DNA of 64,000 nt from an uncultured Actinomycetota bacterium (GTDB lineage: Bacteria; Actinomycetota; Actinomycetes; CAVWCF01), in assembly GCA_963697565.1 (NCBI GenBank), contig CAVOOM010000008.1:24965-88964 (forward strand), given 5' to 3'. The translations under genes were made by a program, and so were the position numbers. The notes under the pieces are model-generated. The model had not been told where the DNA came from. It searched no databases and worked only from the letters and a program-made list of their open reading frames with translations. Each line of letters begins with the position of its first letter. Positions within the stretch are counted from its first letter, which is position 1. Shown here in pieces: positions 4,933 to 15,424 of this stretch.

Positions 4933-5937
4933 ATGATCCGGTTCATCGCCCGGCGGCTGGTGCTGCTGGTCCCGATCCTGCTGGGACTGTCGCTCCTGCT
5001 CTTCATCTGGCTGCGCGCGCTCCCGGGAGGGCCTGCCGAGGCCCTCCTCGGGGAGCGCGCGACGCCGGAGTCGGTCGCCCGGATCGAGAAGCTCTACGGG
5101 CTCGACCGCCCGCTGCCGCAGCAGTACCTGTCCTTCCTGCAGCGGGCGGTCGTGCTCGACTTCGGCTCGTCGGTGCGCACCAACGAACCGGTGGTCGACG
5201 AGCTCAAGCGGCGTTTCCCCGCCACGATCGAGTTGGCGATCGGCGCGATGATCTTCGCCACCGGGCTGGGGATCCCGCTGGGCTACTACGCGGCCCGAAG
5301 ACACGGCACCTGGGTCGACAACACCAGCGTGGTCGGCTCGCTGCTGGGCATCGCGATCCCGGTGTTCTTCCTGGCGTTCCTGCTCAAGTACATCTTCGCG
5401 GTGCAATTGGGGTGGCTGCCGACCTCCGGCCGGCAGGATCCGCGCCTCGACACCGAGTACCCCACCGGCTTCTACGTCCTCGACGGGATACTCACCGGCA
5501 ACCTGCCGGCGGCCTGGGACGCGACCCAGCACCTGATCCTGCCCGCCATCGCGCTCGGCACGATCCCGCTGGCGATCATCGTCCGGATCACCCGCGCCTC
5601 GGTGCTCGATGTGGTCAACGAGGACTACGTGCGGACCGGCGAGGCCAAGGGCCTGCTCAAGCGCACCATCGACCGGCGCTACGTGCTGCGCAACGCGATG
5701 CTCCCGGTCACCACGATCATCGGCCTGCAATTGGGGCTGCTGCTCTCGGGCGCCGTGCTGACCGAGACGGTGTTCGCGTTCCCCGGAGTCGGCGGCTTCC
5801 TCTACTCGTCCATCTTCGTGCGCGACTACTCGGTGATCGTCGGGTTCACGCTCGTCATCGCGATCATCTTCTCGATCGTCAACCTGATCGTCGACATCGC
5901 CTACGGCTTCATCGACCCGCGGGTGCGTGTGCAATGA
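4933..5937 (+). CDS. ABC transporter permease (DppB/OppB-like)
   Basis: Intact 334-aa ORF with multiple hydrophobic helices. Permease loop YVRTGEAKGLLKRTIDRRYVLRNAMLP. Stop overlaps the next start (ATGA). Confidence 0.9.
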   Translation: MIRFIARRLVLLVPILLGLSLLLFIWLRALPGGPAEALLGERATPESVARIEKLYGLDRPLPQQYLSFLQRAVVLDFGSSVRTNEPVVDELKRRFPATIELAIGAMIFATGLGIPLGYYAARRHGTWVDNTSVVGSLLGIAIPVFFLAFLLKYIFAVQLGWLPTSGRQDPRLDTEYPTGFYVLDGILTGNLPAAWDATQHLILPAIALGTIPLAIIVRITRASVLDVVNEDYVRTGEAKGLLKRTIDRRYVLRNAMLPVTTIIGLQLGLLLSGAVLTETVFAFPGVGGFLYSSIFVRDYSVIVGFTLVIAIIFSIVNLIVDIAYGFIDPRVRVQ

Positions 5938-6911
5938 GCATGCCGAAGCCCAACCGCCGCGACAGCCCGGGCCGCGGCCAGCCCAGCGACCTCTACACGG
6001 TCGACAGCATGAAGACCGAGTTCGGCGACCTGGCGGTGCGCGAGACGACCGGCACCAGCCTGGGCCGCGACGCCTGGATCCGGCTGCGCCGCAACCCGGT
6101 TGCCATCATCGGCTTCGTCCTGGTCGTGCTCTTCCTGGTGGTCGCGATCTTCGCCCCGCTCATCGCCCCCTACGGGCCGTCGGACACCCCCGGCAAGGGC
6201 ATCGTCACCCCGACCAACATCCCGGGGCCTTCGGCCGACCACTGGTTCGGCCTCGACGACCTCGGCCGCGACGAGTTCAGCCGGGTCCTGTACGGGGCCC
6301 GCCAGTCGCTCATCGTCGGCGTCGTCTCGCTGCTCATCGGGATGACCGTCGGCGTGATCATGGGCGTGCTCGCGGGGTCCTTCGGCGGCTGGGTCGACGG
6401 CCTGGTCATGCGGATCACCGACATCATGCTGTCGGTCCCGGGCCTGCTGTTCGCGATCGCGGTGGCGGCCGTGCTCGGCCAGAGCCTGAGCTCGGTGATG
6501 ATCGCCATCGCCGTCGTGAACATCCCGGTCTTCGCGCGGCTGCTGCGTGGCTCGATGCTGGCCCAGCGCGACGCCGACTACGTCGTGGCGGCGCACTCGC
6601 TCGGCCTGCGCCGGCGCAACACGGTGGCGTCGCACATCCTGCCCAACTCGATCTCGCCGGTCATCGTGCAGAGCACCCTGGTCCTGGCCACCGCGATCAT
6701 CGACGCAGCGGGCCTGGCCTTCCTGGGCCTCGGCAGCGCCGACCCGGCGATCCCCGAGTGGGGCCGGATGCTGGCCGACACCCAGCGCTACCTGTCGGTC
6801 GCGCCGCACCTCGCGTTCTTCCCAGGTATCGCCATCGTCATCGCCGCGCTCGGCTTCACCCTGCTCGGCGAGTCGCTGCGCGAGGCCCTCGACCCGAAGT
6901 ACCGGCGGTAG
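5934..6911 (+). CDS. ABC transporter permease (DppC/OppC-like)
   Basis: ATG 5934 lies in the frame of ORF 5412..6911. N-terminal IAPYGPSDTP block and loop DYVVAAHSLGLRRRNTVASHILPN are typical of OppC-type permeases. Confidence 0.9.
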   Translation: MSMPKPNRRDSPGRGQPSDLYTVDSMKTEFGDLAVRETTGTSLGRDAWIRLRRNPVAIIGFVLVVLFLVVAIFAPLIAPYGPSDTPGKGIVTPTNIPGPSADHWFGLDDLGRDEFSRVLYGARQSLIVGVVSLLIGMTVGVIMGVLAGSFGGWVDGLVMRITDIMLSVPGLLFAIAVAAVLGQSLSSVMIAIAVVNIPVFARLLRGSMLAQRDADYVVAAHSLGLRRRNTVASHILPNSISPVIVQSTLVLATAIIDAAGLAFLGLGSADPAIPEWGRMLADTQRYLSVAPHLAFFPGIAIVIAALGFTLLGESLREALDPKYRR

Positions 6912-6913
6912 CC

Positions 6914-7911
<998 letters not shown>

Positions 7912-7915
<4 letters not shown>

Positions 7916-8948
7916 CCGATCACGTCCCCGCGCGAGGACGTGCTGCTCGAGGTCCGCGGGCTCGAGGTGCACTTCCCGATCCGCGACGGCATCCTCTTCG
8001 ACCGGCAGGTCGGGGCGGTCAAGGCCGTCGACGGGGTCGACCTCGACGTCGTGCGCGGGACGACCTTCGGCCTGGTGGGGGAGTCCGGCTGCGGCAAGAG
8101 CACGCTGGGCCGGGCCATCCTGCGCCTGGTCGAGCCGACTGCAGGCGTCGTCAAGCTCGACGGGGTCGACATCGCCTCGCTGAAGGGCGAGGCGCTGCGC
8201 TCGGCCCGCCAGCGGATGCAGATGGTCTTCCAGGACCCGATGTCCAGCCTCGACCCCCGCCAGAGCATCCAGTCGATCATCAGCGAGCCGCTGCGGGCCC
8301 ACGGGTTGGGCGGTGACAAGGCCGCCCTGCAGGCCCGGGTCCGCGAGCTGCTCGACATCGTGGGGCTGCCGACCAACGCCGGGTCGCGCTACCCGCACGA
8401 GTTCTCCGGCGGCCAGCGCCAGCGGATCGGGATCGCCCGGGCCATCGCGGTCAACCCCGAGCTGGTGATCGCCGACGAGCCGGTCTCCGCGCTGGACGTG
8501 TCGATCCAGGCCCAGGTGCTGAACCTGCTGGAGGAGCTGCAGGACCGAGTTGGGGCTCACCTACCTGGTGATCGCCCACGACCTGGCGGTGGTGCGGCAC
8601 ATCGCCGACAACGTCGGGGTGATGTACCTCGGCGTGCTCGTCGAGACGGCGTCCTCAGATGAGCTGTACGCGCGGCCGCTGCACCCGTACACGATCTCGC
8701 TGATGTCGGCGGTGCCGATCCCGGACCCGGTCATCGAGGACAGCCGCCAGCGCATCCTGCTCACCGGCGACCTGCCGTCGCCCGCCAACCCGCCCGCGGG
8801 GTGCCGGTTCCACACCCGGTGCCCGTTCCGGCAGGAGACCCGCTGCGACGACGAGCGGCCGGCGCTGCGCGAGATCCTGCCGGGCCACCACGTGGCCTGC
8901 CACTACGCCGAGGACGTGCTGGCCGGGCGGATCGGTCCGGGCCAGTAG
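7912..8948 (+). CDS. ABC transporter ATP-binding protein (DppF/OppF-like); two frame breaks as assembled
   Basis: ATG 7912 overlaps the upstream TGA (ATGA). Walker [10 protein letters not shown]; signature [14 protein letters not shown]; Walker [12 protein letters not shown]; then [13 protein letters not shown] and HPYT. Breaks near 7931 and 8545. Confidence 0.85.
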
Positions 8949-8966: not shown

Positions 8967-10178
8967 TCAGCGGCGGGCTACGAGGTCGCGCGTGGCGACC
9001 CAGGCACGCCAGCCGTTCTCGCAGACGATGTGCGCCCAGCCGCCCCAGACCCGGTCGACGACGACGGGGAGAGCGGGATCCAGCGGCGCGACGGGCGCCT
9101 GGGCCGGATCGGGGGCCTCGTACGCCCAGCCGCCCTCGGCGCGCACATCATGCGTGGGCTGCCAGGTGGTGGTCTGGATGGGGGCGGCTGCCGGCGCCGC
9201 ATCGCCACCGGCCTCTCGCCCGGCTTCCAGCAGCCTCAGCTCGTCCTGGGTGAGGCACATCCCGAAGACCAGCCAGCGCAGGGTGGCCCGGTCGACCTCG
9301 GCCCACTCGAACGCCACGGGCGCCCCGGCGGGGGACACCACCCGGAACAGCAGGATCCGCTCGCCGACCCGGGTCGCCGTCATCGCCGTGTGCGCCGGCC
9401 GGCCGTCGGTGAACTCCGTCCGGCCGATGCCGACGACGGCCGTCGGGTCACCCGCCAAGGCCTCGCGGACGGCAGCCGACGGCGCCAGGCCGTCCGGCCC
9501 GCTGGTCGAGGTGGCCGCCGTCCACCAGCGTCGCGAGCGCCGCGTCGACCGCGGCGGGTCGTGGAGCGCATCGGTGTGCTCCGGCCCGGCGGCGATCGCG
9601 AACGGCAGGACGTAGCCGCGGATCCCCAGGTCGCGGGCGACGGCGGCGCGGACCCGATGCGGCGGTGAGGGGAACCGGGTCCTCACGCAGCGCGCGCAGC
9701 GCCGCGGCGAGCACGAATGCCTCGCCGGCGCCCCCGCGGAACCGGAATCCGGTGGGCGGCGGCTCGGGCCGGTCTCCGGACAGCGCCCCGACCAGCGTCA
9801 CGATCACCGCGGTGCGCGTCAGCGGGAAGGCCAACTTCGTCGTGCCGTCCGCGGCCACCGTGCACTCGGCCACGATCGGCCCGCGCCGCACGATCGAGAA
9901 GCCGGGGATCGCCGGGTCGCTCACGCCGACGTCGATCACCTCGTCTGGCCGGACGCAGGCGGCCAGGACGCCGCGGATGGCGAGGTTGACGCGCCAGGCG
10001 TCCCCGTCCGGGACCACCAGCCCCCGCGCGGGAGCGCATCCCAGCCCGGCTCTCCGGGCGCGAGCGGTCGGGGGAACTGCCGGACGACGCGCAACGGGGT
10101 CCCGGGCGCGGGGTCGGGGAGGCCGCCGAGCGCGAGCAGGGTGGCCACCTGCCAGTCGGAGAGCACGAAGGTCTGCAC
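8967..10178 (-). CDS. Hypothetical cytoplasmic protein: tentative EspG-like N-terminal region fused to a C-terminal SH3b-like domain; four frame breaks as assembled
   Basis: GTG 10178 lies 8 nt after the upstream stop, with GAGGGA between. Protein-like sequence alternates between two frames, with breaks near 10040, 9665, 9575 and 9500. The last 65 aa read WQPTHDVRAEGGWAYEAPDP...VWGGWAHIVCENGWRAWV. Confidence 0.5.
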
Positions 10179-10186
10179 GGGGTCCC

Positions 10187-13100
10187 TCACAGCGCGCCTC
10201 GGATCCAGGAGGCGGCGGCTCCGGCCGAGTGGTAAACGGCCTCCGCGGACTCGGACGCGAGCGCGGCGGCGCCCTCGGCCATCTCGGTGGCGAACCCGGA
10301 CACGCCGCTCTCGCCGATGCCGCTCGCGATCTCCGCGACGCCCTGCGCCACGGTGCCGATGAGCGGGGTACGCGTGATGGCGCTGACACTGGTGTCGACC
10401 GCCTCGGACCAGTAGTCGTCCCCGACCCCGTTGTCCCAGATCGACTGGCAGTCGTTGGCCACGTCGTTCATCCACTTGCTTGGGTCCACGATGACCTCCG
10501 CGGCGATGTTGGTGAGGTAGGCGATGCCCTCCAGCGGGGCGCCGTGCTCACCCCCCTCGACGGATGCGACGAAGGCATCGAGGCGCTCGTTGATCACCGC
10601 GGTGCCGGCCCCGGAGCTGCGGATCTGGTCCAGGTCCGACCACAGGCTGCCGCCGTCCGTGCGAGCCATCTCCTCACCCAACGCCTCACCGACCATCGCG
10701 TACCCCTTGAACGGATCGGTGCCCTCCCGGTTGGCGACGCTCTCGGCAAAGCGGTCGATCGCCTGGGTGTCCAGGCGGCCGGCGGCGAGGCTGTCGTGCA
10801 CCGCCAGCGCCGACGCCCGCGCCGCCTCGTAGCCGGTGCCTGCGAAGTTCTCCACGACCGCGTCCGGGAGGATCCCCCGCAGCTCGGTGGGGAGTAGCGC
10901 CTGCCCCACCAACGACGACCGCGGGTCGGCGACCCCCGACGCCATCGCCGCGTTGCCGGCCATCGTTTGGGCGGTCGCCACCACCGCCGCCTCGGTCGGG
11001 TCCAGGCCACGGCCGATGTTCTCCTCGGTGTGCTGGATGACCGTCCCGAGGTCGGAGACCGCCCCCAGCGTGCCCAGCCCCCGGGGGCCCACGATCGGTT
11101 CGCGCCACTTGGTGGCGGCCTCGAGGTTCGACGTCGCGATCAGGTTCGCCTTGTCGAGGGTGAGCCCCGGGATCTCGGGAACCGCTGCGCGCAGCTGCTG
11201 GTCGATCTGGCCCGGGGGGATCTCGCCGCGACCCGCGCGGTCGAGGACGTTGGTGAGTCGCTCGAGCCGGTCGAGCTTGGCCGGGTCGACGTTGGCGTCG
11301 GTGCGCAGTTGGGGCAGCAGCTTGGAGTTCAGGTCCTTCGCCGTGCCGCGGGCGATCTCCTGGTCAGCGGTCGCCTGCGTGATCACGCCGGTGTCGACGA
11401 GGTGCTGCAGGTGCTCGGCCTTGAAGCGGGTGACATCGGCGGTTTGCGCCGCCCACTGGGGGTCGAAGGGCGTCTTCGCCGGGTCGTTGGCCAGGACCGC
11501 GAGATCGCGGTACGCCTCCGGGTTCGTCGCCTGCGTCACACCCTGGAATGCCCGCTCGGCGTCCCCGCCGGTGACGGTCCGGTACGACCCCTCGTACACC
11601 ACCGATGCCAGGTCGTTCCACCTGCTCGGGGCCAGCGTCACGACCGTGCGCCCGGCGTCGAGGTCGGCCTGCACGCGGTCCAGCTGGCCCTGGATCCTGG
11701 CCGCCTCGGGTGAGCCCGCGGCCGCCTCCAGCTGCGCGCGCAGGGTCTGCGCCGCCTGGTTCAGATCGATGGTCATCCGGCCCTGCGCCTGCGCGGCCCG
11801 CAACTGCTCGGCCACCTCGATCGCCTCGGGCGAGCCCGGCTCCAGCCGAGCCAGCCGGTCGGCGAGCGCACGCACGCGGCTCTCGTTGAGCCCGACGTCT
11901 CGGTCCATACCCGAGGTGCCCCGGCTGCTCGCGTTGCGGAAGTCGAGGACGTCGCCCTCGGGTCCGCCGGTCCGCGTTTGATCGACGGTGAGCTCCCGCC
12001 CGCCCCGGCGGATCCCCATCTCGTTGAGCTTGTCGACGAAGTCGCCGTCGACGCGGTCGTACTCAGCGCGCAGCGCCGCGTCGTAGGCCGCCGCCGTCGG
12101 GCTGCGGCCCTCGGCCTTCAGGATCGACTTGGATTGGAAGTTCTCGTTGATCGCGATCGTCGTCGCCCGAAGCTGGGCCTCGAGGGTGGCGCGCGTGGCG
12201 TCGTCCAGCTCTCCGGCGAGGCGCGTCTGCAGGTCCTTGAACGTGTCGACCAGCCGCTGGCCCTGCACGCGTTCCTTGGTCCAGGCGAGATCCTTCTCCA
12301 GACGCGCCTCGGCCTCTGCCTGGGGCATCCACTCGCCGCCGTACTTCACGTTCCCCTTCCCGTCGGTGGGCAGCGAATCGATCCGCGGGTCGGTGATCGG
12401 CAGCAGCTTGGACGTGTCGACGGGGGTCCGCACCGGGTCGCCGGGGCTCCAGTAGTCGCGCTGCTCCTGCCCACCGCCCTCGCCTGCGGGGGTGGTCGCC
12501 GCGCCGGGCAGCGGCGGGACACCCAGGCCCTGCTCCAGCCGCCATCGGACGTACTGCTCGAACCCGTCCGGGTCCAGCGGGACCTCCGGGTGGGCCGCCT
12601 GGAAGTCGGCGTAGGCCGGGTCGTCCAGCAGCGCGTCGACCCAGTCGGCAAGCGCGGCGTCGCCGTCATCGGGGGATCCGGATGCGGCCAGCTGACCGAC
12701 CACCTGGCCGGCGAACGAGCCCGCGACGCCGCCGGCCGCGGCGGCGATGCCGCCGACCACAGCGGCCTGCTTGACGGTCTCCGAGCCGGCGCACGCGCTC
12801 CACCACTGCGACCAGGACTGGCCGCACTCGAAGTAGCCGCCGTCGTCGGCCCAGGCGGCCGTGGCCGAGAAGAGCGAATCCCACGCGCCAGCGGTTGCGG
12901 CGAGGGCGAGCAGGATCAGGGCCGCGGTCGGCGGGGGCGTGCGGGTGCGCGCGCTGAGCAGGAAGGCGGCGGCGGCCAGGCCGAGTGTGAGGGCGACCTT
13001 CAGCGCGGTGTCAGTCACGACGAAGGCGGCCGTGAGCGCGAACGCGGTGCCGAGGATGCCGACCGCGGTCGAGAGCATCCCGCTCTCCGGCGGCAGTGCC

Positions 13101-13654
13101 GACCTCGGCGAGACCCGGCCGAGGACCGAGTTGACCGCGCGGTAGGCGCCGCTCGACAGGACGTTGCCGACGATCGTCGGCAACGCGACCAGCACGCCGA
13201 GCGAGAGCACGAGCCCCAGCGACGGGCCGATGAGCAGGGCGGCGGCCATGCCGGCGGCCGCCCCCCACAGCAGATGGACGCGCGCGGTGGCCCCGTCGGC
13301 GCGCACCAGCGAGGCCAGTCCCTTGGGCAGGCCCCGCACGTCGCGCCAGAACCGCGGCCCGCCGACGGCGCGGCGGTAGCCGACGAGGGAGAACGCCAGC
13401 ATCGACAGCAGCGCCCAGAAGAGCGCGCCCTGCAGGAAGTTGCCCGGGCCGGTCGCGGCCGACCCCGGGAGCACCTGGGAGCCGTCGTAGCGCGCCGCCA
13501 TCAGCCAGACGTTGACGACGTAGCCGATCACGCCGGCGCCGATGGCGCTGGTCACGACCGACGGCACATGGCCGGCGGCCCAGCCCGGGAACTGGCGCAG
13601 GATCGCGGACAACGACTGGGGGTTCGGCCCGGCGGCAGGGGCGGAGGCGGTCAT
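10187..13654 (-). CDS. Large (1155 aa) polytopic membrane protein of unknown function: about 8 TM helices followed by a soluble domain of about 830 aa that looks helical
   Basis: Uninterrupted reading frame. ATG 13654 overlaps the upstream stop (ATGA). Hydrophobic helices fill the first ~320 aa (e.g. VVTSAIGAGVIGYVVNVWLMAA, FLQGALFWALLSMLAFSLVGY). The rest is Ala/Leu/Glu/Arg/Asp-rich with no catalytic motif I recognise. Confidence 0.7.
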   Translation of the reverse strand: MTASAPAAGPNPQSLSAILRQFPGWAAGHVPSVVTSAIGAGVIGYVVNVWLMAARYDGSQVLPGSAATGPGNFLQGALFWALLSMLAFSLVGYRRAVGGPRFWRDVRGLPKGLASLVRADGATARVHLLWGAAAGMAAALLIGPSLGLVLSLGVLVALPTIVGNVLSSGAYRAVNSVLGRVSPRSALPPESGMLSTAVGILGTAFALTAAFVVTDTALKVALTLGLAAAAFLLSARTRTPPPTAALILLALAATAGAWDSLFSATAAWADDGGYFECGQSWSQWWSACAGSETVKQAAVVGGIAAAAGGVAGSFAGQVVGQLAASGSPDDGDAALADWVDALLDDPAYADFQAAHPEVPLDPDGFEQYVRWRLEQGLGVPPLPGAATTPAGEGGGQEQRDYWSPGDPVRTPVDTSKLLPITDPRIDSLPTDGKGNVKYGGEWMPQAEAEARLEKDLAWTKERVQGQRLVDTFKDLQTRLAGELDDATRATLEAQLRATTIAINENFQSKSILKAEGRSPTAAAYDAALRAEYDRVDGDFVDKLNEMGIRRGGRELTVDQTRTGGPEGDVLDFRNASSRGTSGMDRDVGLNESRVRALADRLARLEPGSPEAIEVAEQLRAAQAQGRMTIDLNQAAQTLRAQLEAAAGSPEAARIQGQLDRVQADLDAGRTVVTLAPSRWNDLASVVYEGSYRTVTGGDAERAFQGVTQATNPEAYRDLAVLANDPAKTPFDPQWAAQTADVTRFKAEHLQHLVDTGVITQATADQEIARGTAKDLNSKLLPQLRTDANVDPAKLDRLERLTNVLDRAGRGEIPPGQIDQQLRAAVPEIPGLTLDKANLIATSNLEAATKWREPIVGPRGLGTLGAVSDLGTVIQHTEENIGRGLDPTEAAVVATAQTMAGNAAMASGVADPRSSLVGQALLPTELRGILPDAVVENFAGTGYEAARASALAVHDSLAAGRLDTQAIDRFAESVANREGTDPFKGYAMVGEALGEEMARTDGGSLWSDLDQIRSSGAGTAVINERLDAFVASVEGGEHGAPLEGIAYLTNIAAEVIVDPSKWMNDVANDCQSIWDNGVGDDYWSEAVDTSVSAITRTPLIGTVAQGVAEIASGIGESGVSGFATEMAEGAAALASESAEAVYHSAGAAASWIRGAL

Positions 13655-14410
13655 GTCCGCGCCTTCGGGCTTGGACCCAGCGCGATCAGCAGGCCGCCGA
13701 CGAAGGCGACGATGACGCCGAGGCCGACCGTGCCCAGCACGGTGGGGGCATCGGGGCCCCCGGCCGCGAGGGCGGCCAGGTTGCGCTGCACCTGCGCCAC
13801 GAACACGGTCGCGATGACGACGACGAGCCACCCGGCCAGGCGGCGGATCCTCCCCAGCGATGGACGGCTCGCGGCGACCAGTGCGACGACCGCGGCCGCG
13901 ACGAGGACCACCGCGATCGAGACCGGGCCGGACGACCCCGTCAGGTCTCCGACGAGGGCCTGCACCGGGAAGTCCGGGCTGCCGAACCCGGGAAGTCCGG
14001 GCAGCCGAAGCCACGGCAGGAGGGCCCCGACGACCACCGTGATGGCGCCGGCGAGCACCACCCCGAACCGGAGGCCTGCGGCCCCGCCCCGCGCCGACCC
14101 GCGCGCCACGATCTCCGCGGGGGTGCGGCCCTGCGGGTGCGCAGCGCTGAACACCGCGGCGTACGACCCGACCGGCCCGACCGCGCGACTGGTTGGGCCA
14201 GCGGCGCCAGGGCGACGAGAAGGCGGCGGCGTCGACCCAGCAGCCCCAGCCGTTGGAGCAGCGCACCTCCGCCCACCGGCCCCACGTGCGCACGAGCTGC
14301 ACGTCGAGGTGCGGGTCGAGCCGGGCGACCGCGGGCACACCCGGGTCTGGCCGCTCCCAGGCCTCTAGGCCGGTCGTGGGGACCCTGTGGGTGGCGGCGT
14401 ACTCGGTCAC
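13651..14410 (-). CDS. SH3b-like domain protein with four C-terminal TM helices; one frame break as assembled
   Basis: GTG 14410. N-terminus THRVPTTGLEAWERPDPGVPAVARLDPHLDVQLVRTWGRWAEVRCSNGWGCWV. After a break near 14180 the adjacent frame gives GLRFGVVLAGAITVVVGALLPW, VSIAVVLVAAAVVALVAA, LAGWLVVVIATVFVAQV and VLGTVGLGVIVAFVGGLLIAL. Stop 13651-13653. Confidence 0.6.
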
Positions 14411-14416
14411 GACGGG

Positions 14417-15424
14417 CTACCCGGTCGATCCGGACGCGGCCGGAAGCTGCGGGTCGGAGATGACATACCCGCCGGACCAGGCTCGCCCGGCGACGCCGAG
14501 CCGGAACACGCCCGGCTTGTCGAGGCACACCTCGACCTGGCCGCCGGGCGGGACCGTCTGATCTTCTGGGCCGCCTGTGATCGTGAGGTCCTCATCGCCG
14601 GTGTTGACCACCGGGACGCAGGTGCCGGCGGGGATCCGCACCCACCTCGGGTCGAAGCGGCCCGACCCCAGGTCGAACTGCGGCGTCTCCTGCGCGGGCG
14701 ACGTCGACCAAGGCCGGTGCCAGCCAAGCAGCACCACCAGTAGCCCGATCAGGGCGGCGGGCACGGCCCACCGGCCGATCTCGTCGAGCTGCTGCTTGCG
14801 CGCGAGCGGCCGGGCGGTCATCCAGCCGAGCAGCAGCCCGTACGGGATGTGCGCGGCGTAGGCGATCGCGATGACATCCCACTTGCCGGTGAGTCCGTAG
14901 TAGGTGGCAAAGGGCGTGACCAGGGTGGCCGTCTCCAGCACCATCGCCCAGACCACCGCCCACCACACGGGCCGCCCGAGGGCCACCGCGGCGTAGGCGA
15001 TGCCGAAGCAGATGCCGTTGGCGAAGTGGTACGTCCACCCGGCGAAGGCGCTCAGGTCGCTGGACGTGTTCGCATTGAGCAGGAGCACGCCGTACGACTC
15101 GATCGGGGCCAGCACCTGCCGCCCGCCCAAGACGAAGGGGACGCGGAAGAGGTCGTAGCCGATCGTGCCGAGCAGCCCTCCCAGCGAGCCCAGCGTCAGG
15201 ACGAGGCGCAGCCGGACGAAGGCCGTCGTGCGGAAGGCGACGACGGCGATCACCGCGATCGCGACGAGCGCGGGCAGGGTGACGCGCAGGAACCACGTCG
15301 AGAACTGACCGAGGCCGAAGACCCAGGCGAGCAGGGGCGCGACGTTGAGCAGGGCGAGGAGGGCGAGCCCTCCGGTGAGCCAGCCCTCGGCCGGCGACGA
15401 CAGGCCCGGCGAGCGCGCGGTCAC
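14417..15424 (-). CDS. Polytopic membrane protein with a C-terminal cupredoxin-like beta domain (function unknown)
   Basis: Intact 335-aa ORF with about 8 hydrophobic helices (GLALLALLNVAPLLAWVFGL, LPALVAIAVIAVVAF, WWAVVWAMVLETATLV). C-terminal FDPRWVRIPAGTCVPVVNTGDEDLTI...PPGGQVEVCLDKPGVFRLGV. Stop lies 6 nt before the next gene start. Confidence 0.65.
   Translation of the reverse strand: MTARSPGLSSPAEGWLTGGLALLALLNVAPLLAWVFGLGQFSTWFLRVTLPALVAIAVIAVVAFRTTAFVRLRLVLTLGSLGGLLGTIGYDLFRVPFVLGGRQVLAPIESYGVLLLNANTSSDLSAFAGWTYHFANGICFGIAYAAVALGRPVWWAVVWAMVLETATLVTPFATYYGLTGKWDVIAIAYAAHIPYGLLLGWMTARPLARKQQLDEIGRWAVPAALIGLLVVLLGWHRPWSTSPAQETPQFDLGSGRFDPRWVRIPAGTCVPVVNTGDEDLTITGGPEDQTVPPGGQVEVCLDKPGVFRLGVAGRAWSGGYVISDPQLPAASGSTG

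Follow-up and report, generated by a model that had tools for sequence, protein, structure and literature searches.

What does a bacterium do with a large protein that matches no known domain family and begins with eight membrane helices? A 64,000-nucleotide stretch of DNA from an uncultured Actinomycetota bacterium (contig CAVOOM010000008.1, positions 24,965 to 88,964; hereafter ‘the window’) contains such a gene, here called BIG, on its minus strand. A first-pass annotation, made from the sequence alone, had described its product as an eight-helix membrane base, a two-cysteine loop and a single helical domain of ∼830 residues without recognizable motifs. Our analyses point, with a probability that we put at roughly 0.6, to BIG being the effector subunit of a polymorphic-toxin-type conflict module that carries a previously unnamed eight-helix inner-membrane domain. 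The gene and its parts are as follows:

10187..13654 (including the stop codon), minus strand: whole gene BIG, 1155 amino acids (aa), probable membrane-anchored polymorphic-toxin-type protein
12677..13654, minus strand: N-terminal membrane domain, residues 1–326, the family-defining module (from alignments and an AlphaFold2 model)
12785..12856, minus strand: loop between helices 7 and 8, residues 267–290, WADDGGYFECGQSWSQWWSACAGS, predicted to be extracytoplasmic
12677..12784, minus strand: helix 8, residues 291–326, Gly/Ala-rich, predicted to return the chain to the cytoplasm
12338..12676, minus strand: linker, residues 327–439 (from an alignment and sequences)
11105..12337, minus strand: domain A, residues 440–850, alpha+beta with a coiled-coil insert (from alignments and a model)
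10190..11077, minus strand: domain B, residues 860–1155, the C-terminal tip (from alignments)

Variable tips and co-varying partners

Among cluster representatives at 50% identity, 423 match BIG at a threshold of E ≤ 1e-3 and resolve into three independent modules; an extra homologue search from alignment A1 gave almost no new members. Each of the 110 homologues with a complete membrane domain has it at the N-terminus. For 94 of these proteins the last 300 residues (the ‘tips’) were clustered, giving 37 unrelated groups, of which 27 have a single member. Recognizable tips include Gln_amidase/Tox-PL1 (in proteins P0009 and P0010 and at locus L012), Peptidase_M91 (in P0003 and one more protein), LHH nuclease and PI3_PI4_kinase. 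Replacement of one tip by another can be followed between paralogues: P0009 and P0010 of Streptomyces wedmorensis are 92–100% identical over ∼700 residues and then 18–54% identical in the Gln_amidase tip. Loci in Kitasatospora have common membrane and middle (‘M’) parts, and their ends differ (domain A or Gln_amidase). BIG is thus no orphan: its family comprises at least 423 cluster representatives and shows the hallmarks of polymorphic toxins, a relationship that the first-pass annotation had not considered.

The gene that follows also changes with the tip. The downstream partner and two upstream neighbours of BIG are encoded as follows:

8967..10178, minus strand: downstream partner, ∼400 aa, with a C-terminal SH3b domain, a candidate adaptor/immunity protein (frameshifts near 10031 and 9657)
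13651..14410, minus strand: upstream gene, with an N-terminal SH3b domain and about four membrane helices (frameshifted near 14183–14220)
14417..15424, minus strand: 335-aa membrane protein with about seven helices, weak DUF6789 similarity and a cupredoxin-like C-terminal domain

In all cases the partner carries a C-terminal tag, which is an SH3b domain in Actinobacteria and a zinc ribbon elsewhere. Behind every protein with domain B at its end (in the window, L001 and L024–L027) comes a partner of the ‘n433’ type, a type seen with no other tip; this holds at L025 too, despite the different N-terminus there. A second partner type follows proteins with the M module, including a metagenomic one (L031) that lacks the eight-helix domain. 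When n433-type and L005d-type partners were compared, only their SH3b parts proved significantly similar (hhalign E of 0.11 once SH3b was removed). The partner begins with Imm35 at the Gln_amidase locus L012 and at the Cupriavidus locus L021 (E values of 8e-11 and 1e-12, above the Pfam cut-off), and Imm35 is given in the literature as the immunity family of Tox-PL1 (Zhang et al. 2012, PMC3482391). Because Imm35 heads the partner where the toxin is Tox-PL1, we take the partner to have an immunity function at least in part, with a conserved adaptor attached.

Of the features by which polymorphic toxins are recognized (sensu Zhang et al. 2012), the family displays variable tips, known toxin tips, tip replacement and a co-varying downstream gene; a recognized trafficking or secretion determinant (a signal peptide, type V, VI or VII secretion (T5, T6 or T7) domains, PVC, MuF, PrsW or TcdB/TcaC) was not found.

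Carriers of the family comprise Kitasatospora, Streptomyces, Nocardia, Acidimicrobiales, Ilumatobacteraceae, Nanopelagicales, Dormiibacterota, Reyranella, Cupriavidus necator and a Bacteroidota metagenome-assembled genome. The genome from which the window derives has one copy, and the family is absent from 60 of 60 relatives of that genome, the same genus and family included. A patchy distribution is typical of conflict genes. In public annotation the members take their names from their tips only, or bear wrong ones such as ‘OmpH family outer membrane protein’.

Several of the tips and partners bear features of their own. The commonest tip cluster, with 21 of the 94 proteins (P0038, P0110 and 19 others), has no Pfam match; its motifs, PKPP-x-I-x2-K(S) and (S/G)D-x-DL(Y/W), presumably resemble the catalytic motifs of nucleotidyl cyclase toxins of the anthrax EF/CyaA type. 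Another cluster (P0098, P0101, P0107 and P0132) combines HE-x2-H with a later LNEAATEY and has the look of a zincin-type metallopeptidase. The M module (P0006, P0007, P0009, L031, L034 and L038–L047) is conserved, contains a moderately hydrophobic, Gly-rich stretch and the motif GY-x-EGG ... LP(I/V)N(T), stands before domain A or Gln_amidase tips and has its own type of partner protein; its hydrophobic hairpin may span a membrane. The partners at L012 (5540–7297, Kitasatospora sp. NPDC127111) and L021 (from 9377, Cupriavidus necator A5-1) are unusual immunity-adaptor fusions, in which Imm35, the conserved adaptor body and an SH3b or zinc-ribbon tag follow one another; at L021 the open reading frame (ORF) call runs on into domains similar to the beta clamp (DNA_pol3_beta) that another gene may encode.

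The BIG protein and the genes beside it

The BIG ORF is real and coding. In a window of ∼74% G+C, its third codon positions have a GC content of 0.88–1.0 over the full length of the ORF, and independent Logan contigs from wastewater, freshwater and sediment metagenomes (strains ∼95–97% identical) cover it with no frame-breaking indel among them. Of the substitutions listed inside the ORF in these related-strain contigs, 29 of 38 lie at codon position 3, which indicates purifying selection on the BIG frame. The 1155-residue translation (minus strand, 10187–13654) starts with MTASAPAAGP; the ATG at 13654 overlaps the stop codon of the upstream gene (ATGA) and has GAAGG 8–12 nt upstream, and 8 nt after the TGA stop codon (10187–10189) comes the GTG with which the next gene starts, itself preceded by GAGGGA. 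No RNA-seq runs holding the gene were found. A mechanically listed extension to 14410, giving 1407 aa, was rejected as an artefact because codon-position GC switches frame: the high-GC third position changes frame between 13651 and ∼14200, and upstream of 13651 it is back in the BIG frame only along a short SH3b-coding stretch.

Searches with the whole protein gave no match in Pfam-A (hmmscan, E ≤ 1), among PDB sequences or in PADLOC, and NCBIfam gave a single match at noise level. In this respect the absence of recognizable motifs reported by the first-pass annotation held up, and the strings that it quoted for the two-cysteine loop (WADDGGYFECGQSWSQWWSACAGS, residues 267–290), helix 8 (AAVVGGIAAAAGGVAGSFAGQVVGQL, residues 296–321) and the Gly/Ala/Ser-rich tail are all present in the translation.

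We modelled residues 1–326 with AlphaFold2 from a 26-sequence alignment (mean predicted local distance difference test score (pLDDT) 86.9, predicted template modelling score 0.81). The model contains eight membrane-length helices, as had been counted from hydrophobicity, together with an amphipathic helix at residues 99–120, and helix 8 is modelled as a single long helix (pLDDT 93–97). A Foldseek search of this model against the PDB returned no match (best E of 0.26, template modelling (TM) scores ≤ 0.17, the top hits being unrelated transporters). Polar residues conserved in the alignments are N48, H127, D270-D271-G272-G273 and E276. Within the loop between helices 7 and 8, the motif ADDGG-x2-E is near-invariant; the Cys pair is kept in actinobacterial members and absent from those of Reyranella and Bacteroidota, with a mean of 1.75 Cys per loop in 26 homologues.

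A positive-inside count over the 26 homologues gave mean numbers of Lys plus Arg of 2.7, 5.5, 3.7 and 1.6 for the N-terminus and even loops, and of 1.0, 0, 0.1 and 0.9 for the odd loops. This distribution predicts a cytoplasmic N-terminus, an external Cys loop and a cytoplasmic location for the C-terminal ∼830 residues, a result that backs an earlier guess about the location of the large C-terminal region; the payload would then be cytoplasmic when made. Proteins with A and/or B behind other N-termini (L025, L034, P0059 and P0125, for example) are laid out differently: they begin with a lipoprotein or Sec signal, continue with an ectodomain that is short or contains PKD, and have one membrane helix ahead of A and/or B. 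That layout would place A and B on the cytoplasmic side there too. In P0045, P0046, P0059 and P0125 we observed minimal anchors, consisting of a short two-Cys motif and one glycine-zipper-like membrane helix with domain B further downstream, that resemble the ‘Cys loop plus helix 8’ end of the eight-helix domain standing alone.

The region behind the membrane domain is not the single helical domain of the first-pass annotation. It consists instead of a linker and two conserved, independently mobile domains, A and B. The linker has a segment common to some homologues, DWV-x2-LL-x-DPA(F/Y)...HP...(F)-x2-Y-x-WR-x3-G(L/I)-x2-PP(L/I)P, followed by Pro/Gly-rich low complexity sequence. Domain A is modelled confidently as an alpha+beta domain (pLDDT ∼90) with a coiled-coil insert whose length varies among homologues and which accounts for the ‘coiled-coil-like runs’ seen earlier. 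Many invariant charged residues lie within its motifs (N-x2-Y-x-(A/S)K-x-(I/L)LK, RGG(R), D-x4-RN-x-(S/A)S-x-G-x2-GMDRD, VTG-x-D, EAY-x-D, AxQT-x-SV and QE-x-ARG-x-(A/S)KD), and elsewhere the domain forms the C-terminal tip of other family members and also occurs in proteins with different N-termini. Domain B is conserved as well (motifs DPF-x-G, RTDGG, G-x-HG-x2-L-x-G and GVGD-x-(Y/F)W, with a Gly/Ala-rich amphipathic tail) and is also found behind different N-termini, yet its model is poor (pLDDT 30–50). Its homologues end in an aromatic pair (…SWF, …SFF or …GFF); BIG, at the same length, ends in …WIRGAL (10190–10210). A profile search of A plus B against PDB sequences gave no match, Foldseek against the PDB and BFVD gave only non-significant ones (helical-bundle or tape-measure-like) that we do not count as evidence, and Pfam found only PKD, TPR and zinc-ribbon domains, and no trafficking domain, on proteins with A or B behind other N-termini.

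The genes of the module overlap by ATGA or sit a few nucleotides apart. A DUF6789-like protein is encoded directly upstream of the family gene in most actinobacterial, alphaproteobacterial (including Reyranella) and Bacteroidota loci; at L028 and L029 it adjoins the family gene on the opposite strand. At the Nanopelagicales locus L002 (6428–7990) a three-domain multicopper oxidase takes the place of the cupredoxin-tailed DUF6789-like protein, which may be chance or may point to a connection with copper or redox chemistry.

The window's module recurs, clean and colinear, at the Acidimicrobiales locus L001, where starts and stops overlap and the genes encode a 111-aa protein, a 335-aa membrane protein, a 209-aa protein with SH3b and transmembrane segments, BIG, a 433-aa partner and two further proteins. 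At 12802–13506 this locus encodes a secreted 234-aa protein, and at 13680–14198 a 172-aa membrane protein with a third SH3b domain at its end. With three SH3b proteins in L001, the SH3b tag marks several proteins of one module. The assignment comes from an SH3_4 match (E of 1.1e-5) in the L001 orthologue of the upstream gene and from matches to SH3_3 or SH3_4 in several of the partners; within a single locus, the copies share ∼50% identity. The neighbours that carry SH3b have it at the very start or lack a hydrophobic N-terminal segment (as read from the sequence). Their SH3b domains are therefore probably cytoplasmic too, a layout that fits the earlier proposal of SH3b domains lying next to the large cytoplasmic region.

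A possible mode of action, rival explanations and known systems

How might such a module work? BIG would insert with both termini inside, so that its payload, domains A and B, would be made in the cytoplasm and may be held there by the SH3b-tagged downstream partner, acting as immunity protein, chaperone or both. The membrane domain, probably together with the DUF6789-like protein, would anchor the payload and later release or export it; we draw this step by analogy with PrsW-fused toxins, for which it has been proposed but never shown. Domain B, as the putative cognate target of the n433-type partner, would be the likeliest toxic tip, and domain A may either be a second domain with toxic or enzymatic activity or serve in translocation. 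The eight-helix domain is a candidate new trafficking determinant. A bolder proposal, which we hold tentatively and with the odds against it, is that this domain and the DUF6789-like partner form a self-contained, unrecognized inner-membrane release or export route (a ‘cytoplasmic-membrane autotransporter’) spanning Actinobacteria, Acidimicrobiia, Alphaproteobacteria, Betaproteobacteria and Bacteroidota, with SH3b or zinc-ribbon adaptors docking the payload beforehand and with A and B representing new toxin or translocation folds.

A number of observations weigh against the assignment of BIG to a polymorphic-toxin-type module. A recognizable toxin domain is present in only ∼7 of the ∼90 family members scanned, and neither the sequences nor the folds of domains A and B match a known toxin. 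At loci with A tips, the partner has no separate immunity domain. Some distant A-domain proteins (L040, L045 and L047) have a signal peptide and no clear second membrane helix, a layout in which A would lie outside the cell, at odds with a cytoplasmic location in every case. Pfam and NCBIfam find no secretion signal, releasing peptidase or known trafficking domain on BIG; the neighbouring genes include no secretion ATPase or other export machinery; and for the release or export step itself the module offers neither a peptidase motif nor an ATPase nor a known secretion gene. The predicted topology keeps the payload inside the producer, so that delivery to another cell is left unexplained.

This last point favours a reading in which BIG acts on its own producer, as a membrane-anchored effector of abortive infection or regulated cell death. 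Here the Cys loop and the cupredoxin-like ectodomain of the membrane partner would sense envelope damage or phage, and a payload freed from its SH3b-tagged inhibitor would kill or arrest the cell. The absence of export machinery nearby, a partner protein that has no signal peptide, the patchy distribution and a variety of tips (nuclease, peptidase, deamidase and kinase-like) similar to that of defence-system effectors would all agree with such a role. Imm35 and Tox-PL1, however, are classic parts of inter-bacterial polymorphic toxins, and the sharp replacement of tips between paralogues of one species is a signature of kin-discrimination toxins; these features favour inter-bacterial use. Moreover, PADLOC-DB 2.0 has no family that matches any of seven module proteins (E ≤ 0.1), and a phage-sensing or NTPase component is missing from the module. 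We regard self-directed action as unlikely, although it is the topology itself that speaks for it and against an inter-bacterial toxin.

A role outside conflict appears more improbable still. The eight-helix and DUF6789-like proteins might form an envelope or redox complex whose cytoplasmic region tethers SH3b-tagged proteins, a view with which the conservation of the membrane pair across Actinobacteria, Alphaproteobacteria and Bacteroidota, the cupredoxin-like ectodomain, the multicopper oxidase upstream in L002 and the recurrence of SH3b three times in one locus are consistent; the weak best fold matches are to helical-bundle scaffolds (alpha-catenin and vinculin, for instance) and to tape-measure proteins, none of them significant. 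Yet the C-terminal regions of the family are unconserved and include, among their 37 unrelated clusters, bona fide toxins with an Imm35 partner, and a family absent from 60 related genomes is not housekeeping. It is very hard to credit, finally, that BIG is a substrate related to type VII (ESX) secretion, with the downstream protein as an EspG-like chaperone that passes a helical payload to an ESX-type machine. The partner does resemble EspG (PF14011) in being a cytoplasmic protein of ∼280–400 aa encoded next to a helical substrate, and in an hhalign comparison of the partner family with ten EspG sequences the N-termini align in register (residues 8–104 against 2–99, P = 0.016). The similarity is non-significant, however, with a probability of only 2.9%; PF14011 (ESX-1_EspG) matches no partner protein and nothing in the window's genome, that genome and the family's loci lack ESX genes (no WXG100, LXG, EccC or EccD genes in the loci), and the family also occurs in Proteobacteria and Bacteroidota, groups that do not have ESX. 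‘Tme’ effectors of contractile injection systems (PMC11126660) were considered and dropped, as BIG has no DUF4157 and its locus no contractile-injection context.

Set against known systems, the polymorphic-toxin-type module proposed here has its closest precedent in PrsW-fused toxins, which likewise place about eight membrane helices in front of diverse toxin tips. These proteins, mainly from Gram-positive bacteria, consist of an N-terminal domain of about eight helices, a short or long linker and a variable toxin tip, and the PrsW domain was predicted in 2012 to act as toxin anchor and conduit (Zhang, de Souza, Anantharaman, Iyer & Aravind 2012, Biol Direct 7:18; PMC3482391). BIG differs in that it has no Pfam match to PrsW or to any other family at E ≤ 1 and no Foldseek match to solved membrane proteins, CPBP-type peptidases included. 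The conserved residues of its family are N48, H127, the ADDGG-x2-E motif and the Cys pair, and do not include what we take to be the acidic and histidine motifs of PrsW/CPBP peptidases. The DUF6789-like membrane partner and the SH3b- or zinc-ribbon-tagged downstream proteins are also specific to the BIG family.

Classical pairs of Tox-PL1 (Gln_amidase, PF15644) and Imm35 (PF15567) share with the family a conserved front, variable tips, tip replacement and a downstream immunity gene, and some members of the BIG family contain that exact pair. Unlike these pairs, the window's domains A and B and its partner belong to families without a name, the recognizable immunity domain, where there is one, is found in fusion with a large conserved adaptor whose tag is an SH3b domain or a zinc ribbon, and no known secretion route (T5, T6, T7, Sec-only, PVC or MuF) is indicated.

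A third comparison is with prePAAR effectors of the type VI secretion system (T6SS), which reportedly have N-terminal transmembrane domains and dedicated Eag chaperones. Both arrangements join a toxin's N-terminal membrane helices to a dedicated cytoplasmic partner encoded next to it. In prePAAR effectors, the chaperone shields one or two pairs of helices, which presumably insert into the membrane of the target. The BIG family has in contrast a conserved eight-helix bundle, an extracytoplasmic Cys loop and a membrane partner of its own, with no PAAR, Rhs or T6SS, and its downstream partner tracks the C-terminal payload rather than the membrane domain.

A polymorphic toxin with its immunity protein is a known kind of system. 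What appear to be undescribed, in the databases and in a limited literature search, are the membrane domain, its fixed membrane partner, the tagged adaptor/immunity proteins and domains A and B. That search, too limited to prove absence, found no description of the family, and the Lipocone superfamily paper does not describe it. Polymorphic toxins are classed by their mode of trafficking, and to our knowledge only a small number of routes (ESX, Sec, umbrella particles and contractile injection systems) have been described for Actinobacteria. The family, with its several hundred clusters, is a candidate for an additional toxin-trafficking route or, at minimum, would represent a new way of holding toxins at the membrane. 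It also opens a way to at least two payload domains that lack annotation (A and B) and to dozens of other tips that likewise lack it, and its definition corrects public annotations that are based on tips or on wrong names. The predicted cytoplasmic location of the payload makes export a sharp question, and one that can be approached in culturable carriers from Streptomyces and Kitasatospora.

Assembly around the gene

The frameshifts in the two genes next to BIG are most likely assembly errors rather than signs of pseudogenes. Related contigs differ from the window by an added C at 14183, two bases fewer at 14220, an added T at 10031, one base fewer at 9657, an added C at 9562 and one base fewer at 9501. 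Applying these changes restores single ORFs of ∼250 aa for the upstream gene and 402 aa for the partner, which match their L001 orthologues, and the related strains carry intact versions of both genes. BIG itself is unaffected by these indels. Further along, plus-strand genes for oligopeptide-transporter ATPases (7940–8948 and 5927–7915) are also split or fused across frames, as would fit indel errors throughout the assembly, with an OppF-like protein running from the 7940–8662 frame into that of 8550–8948.

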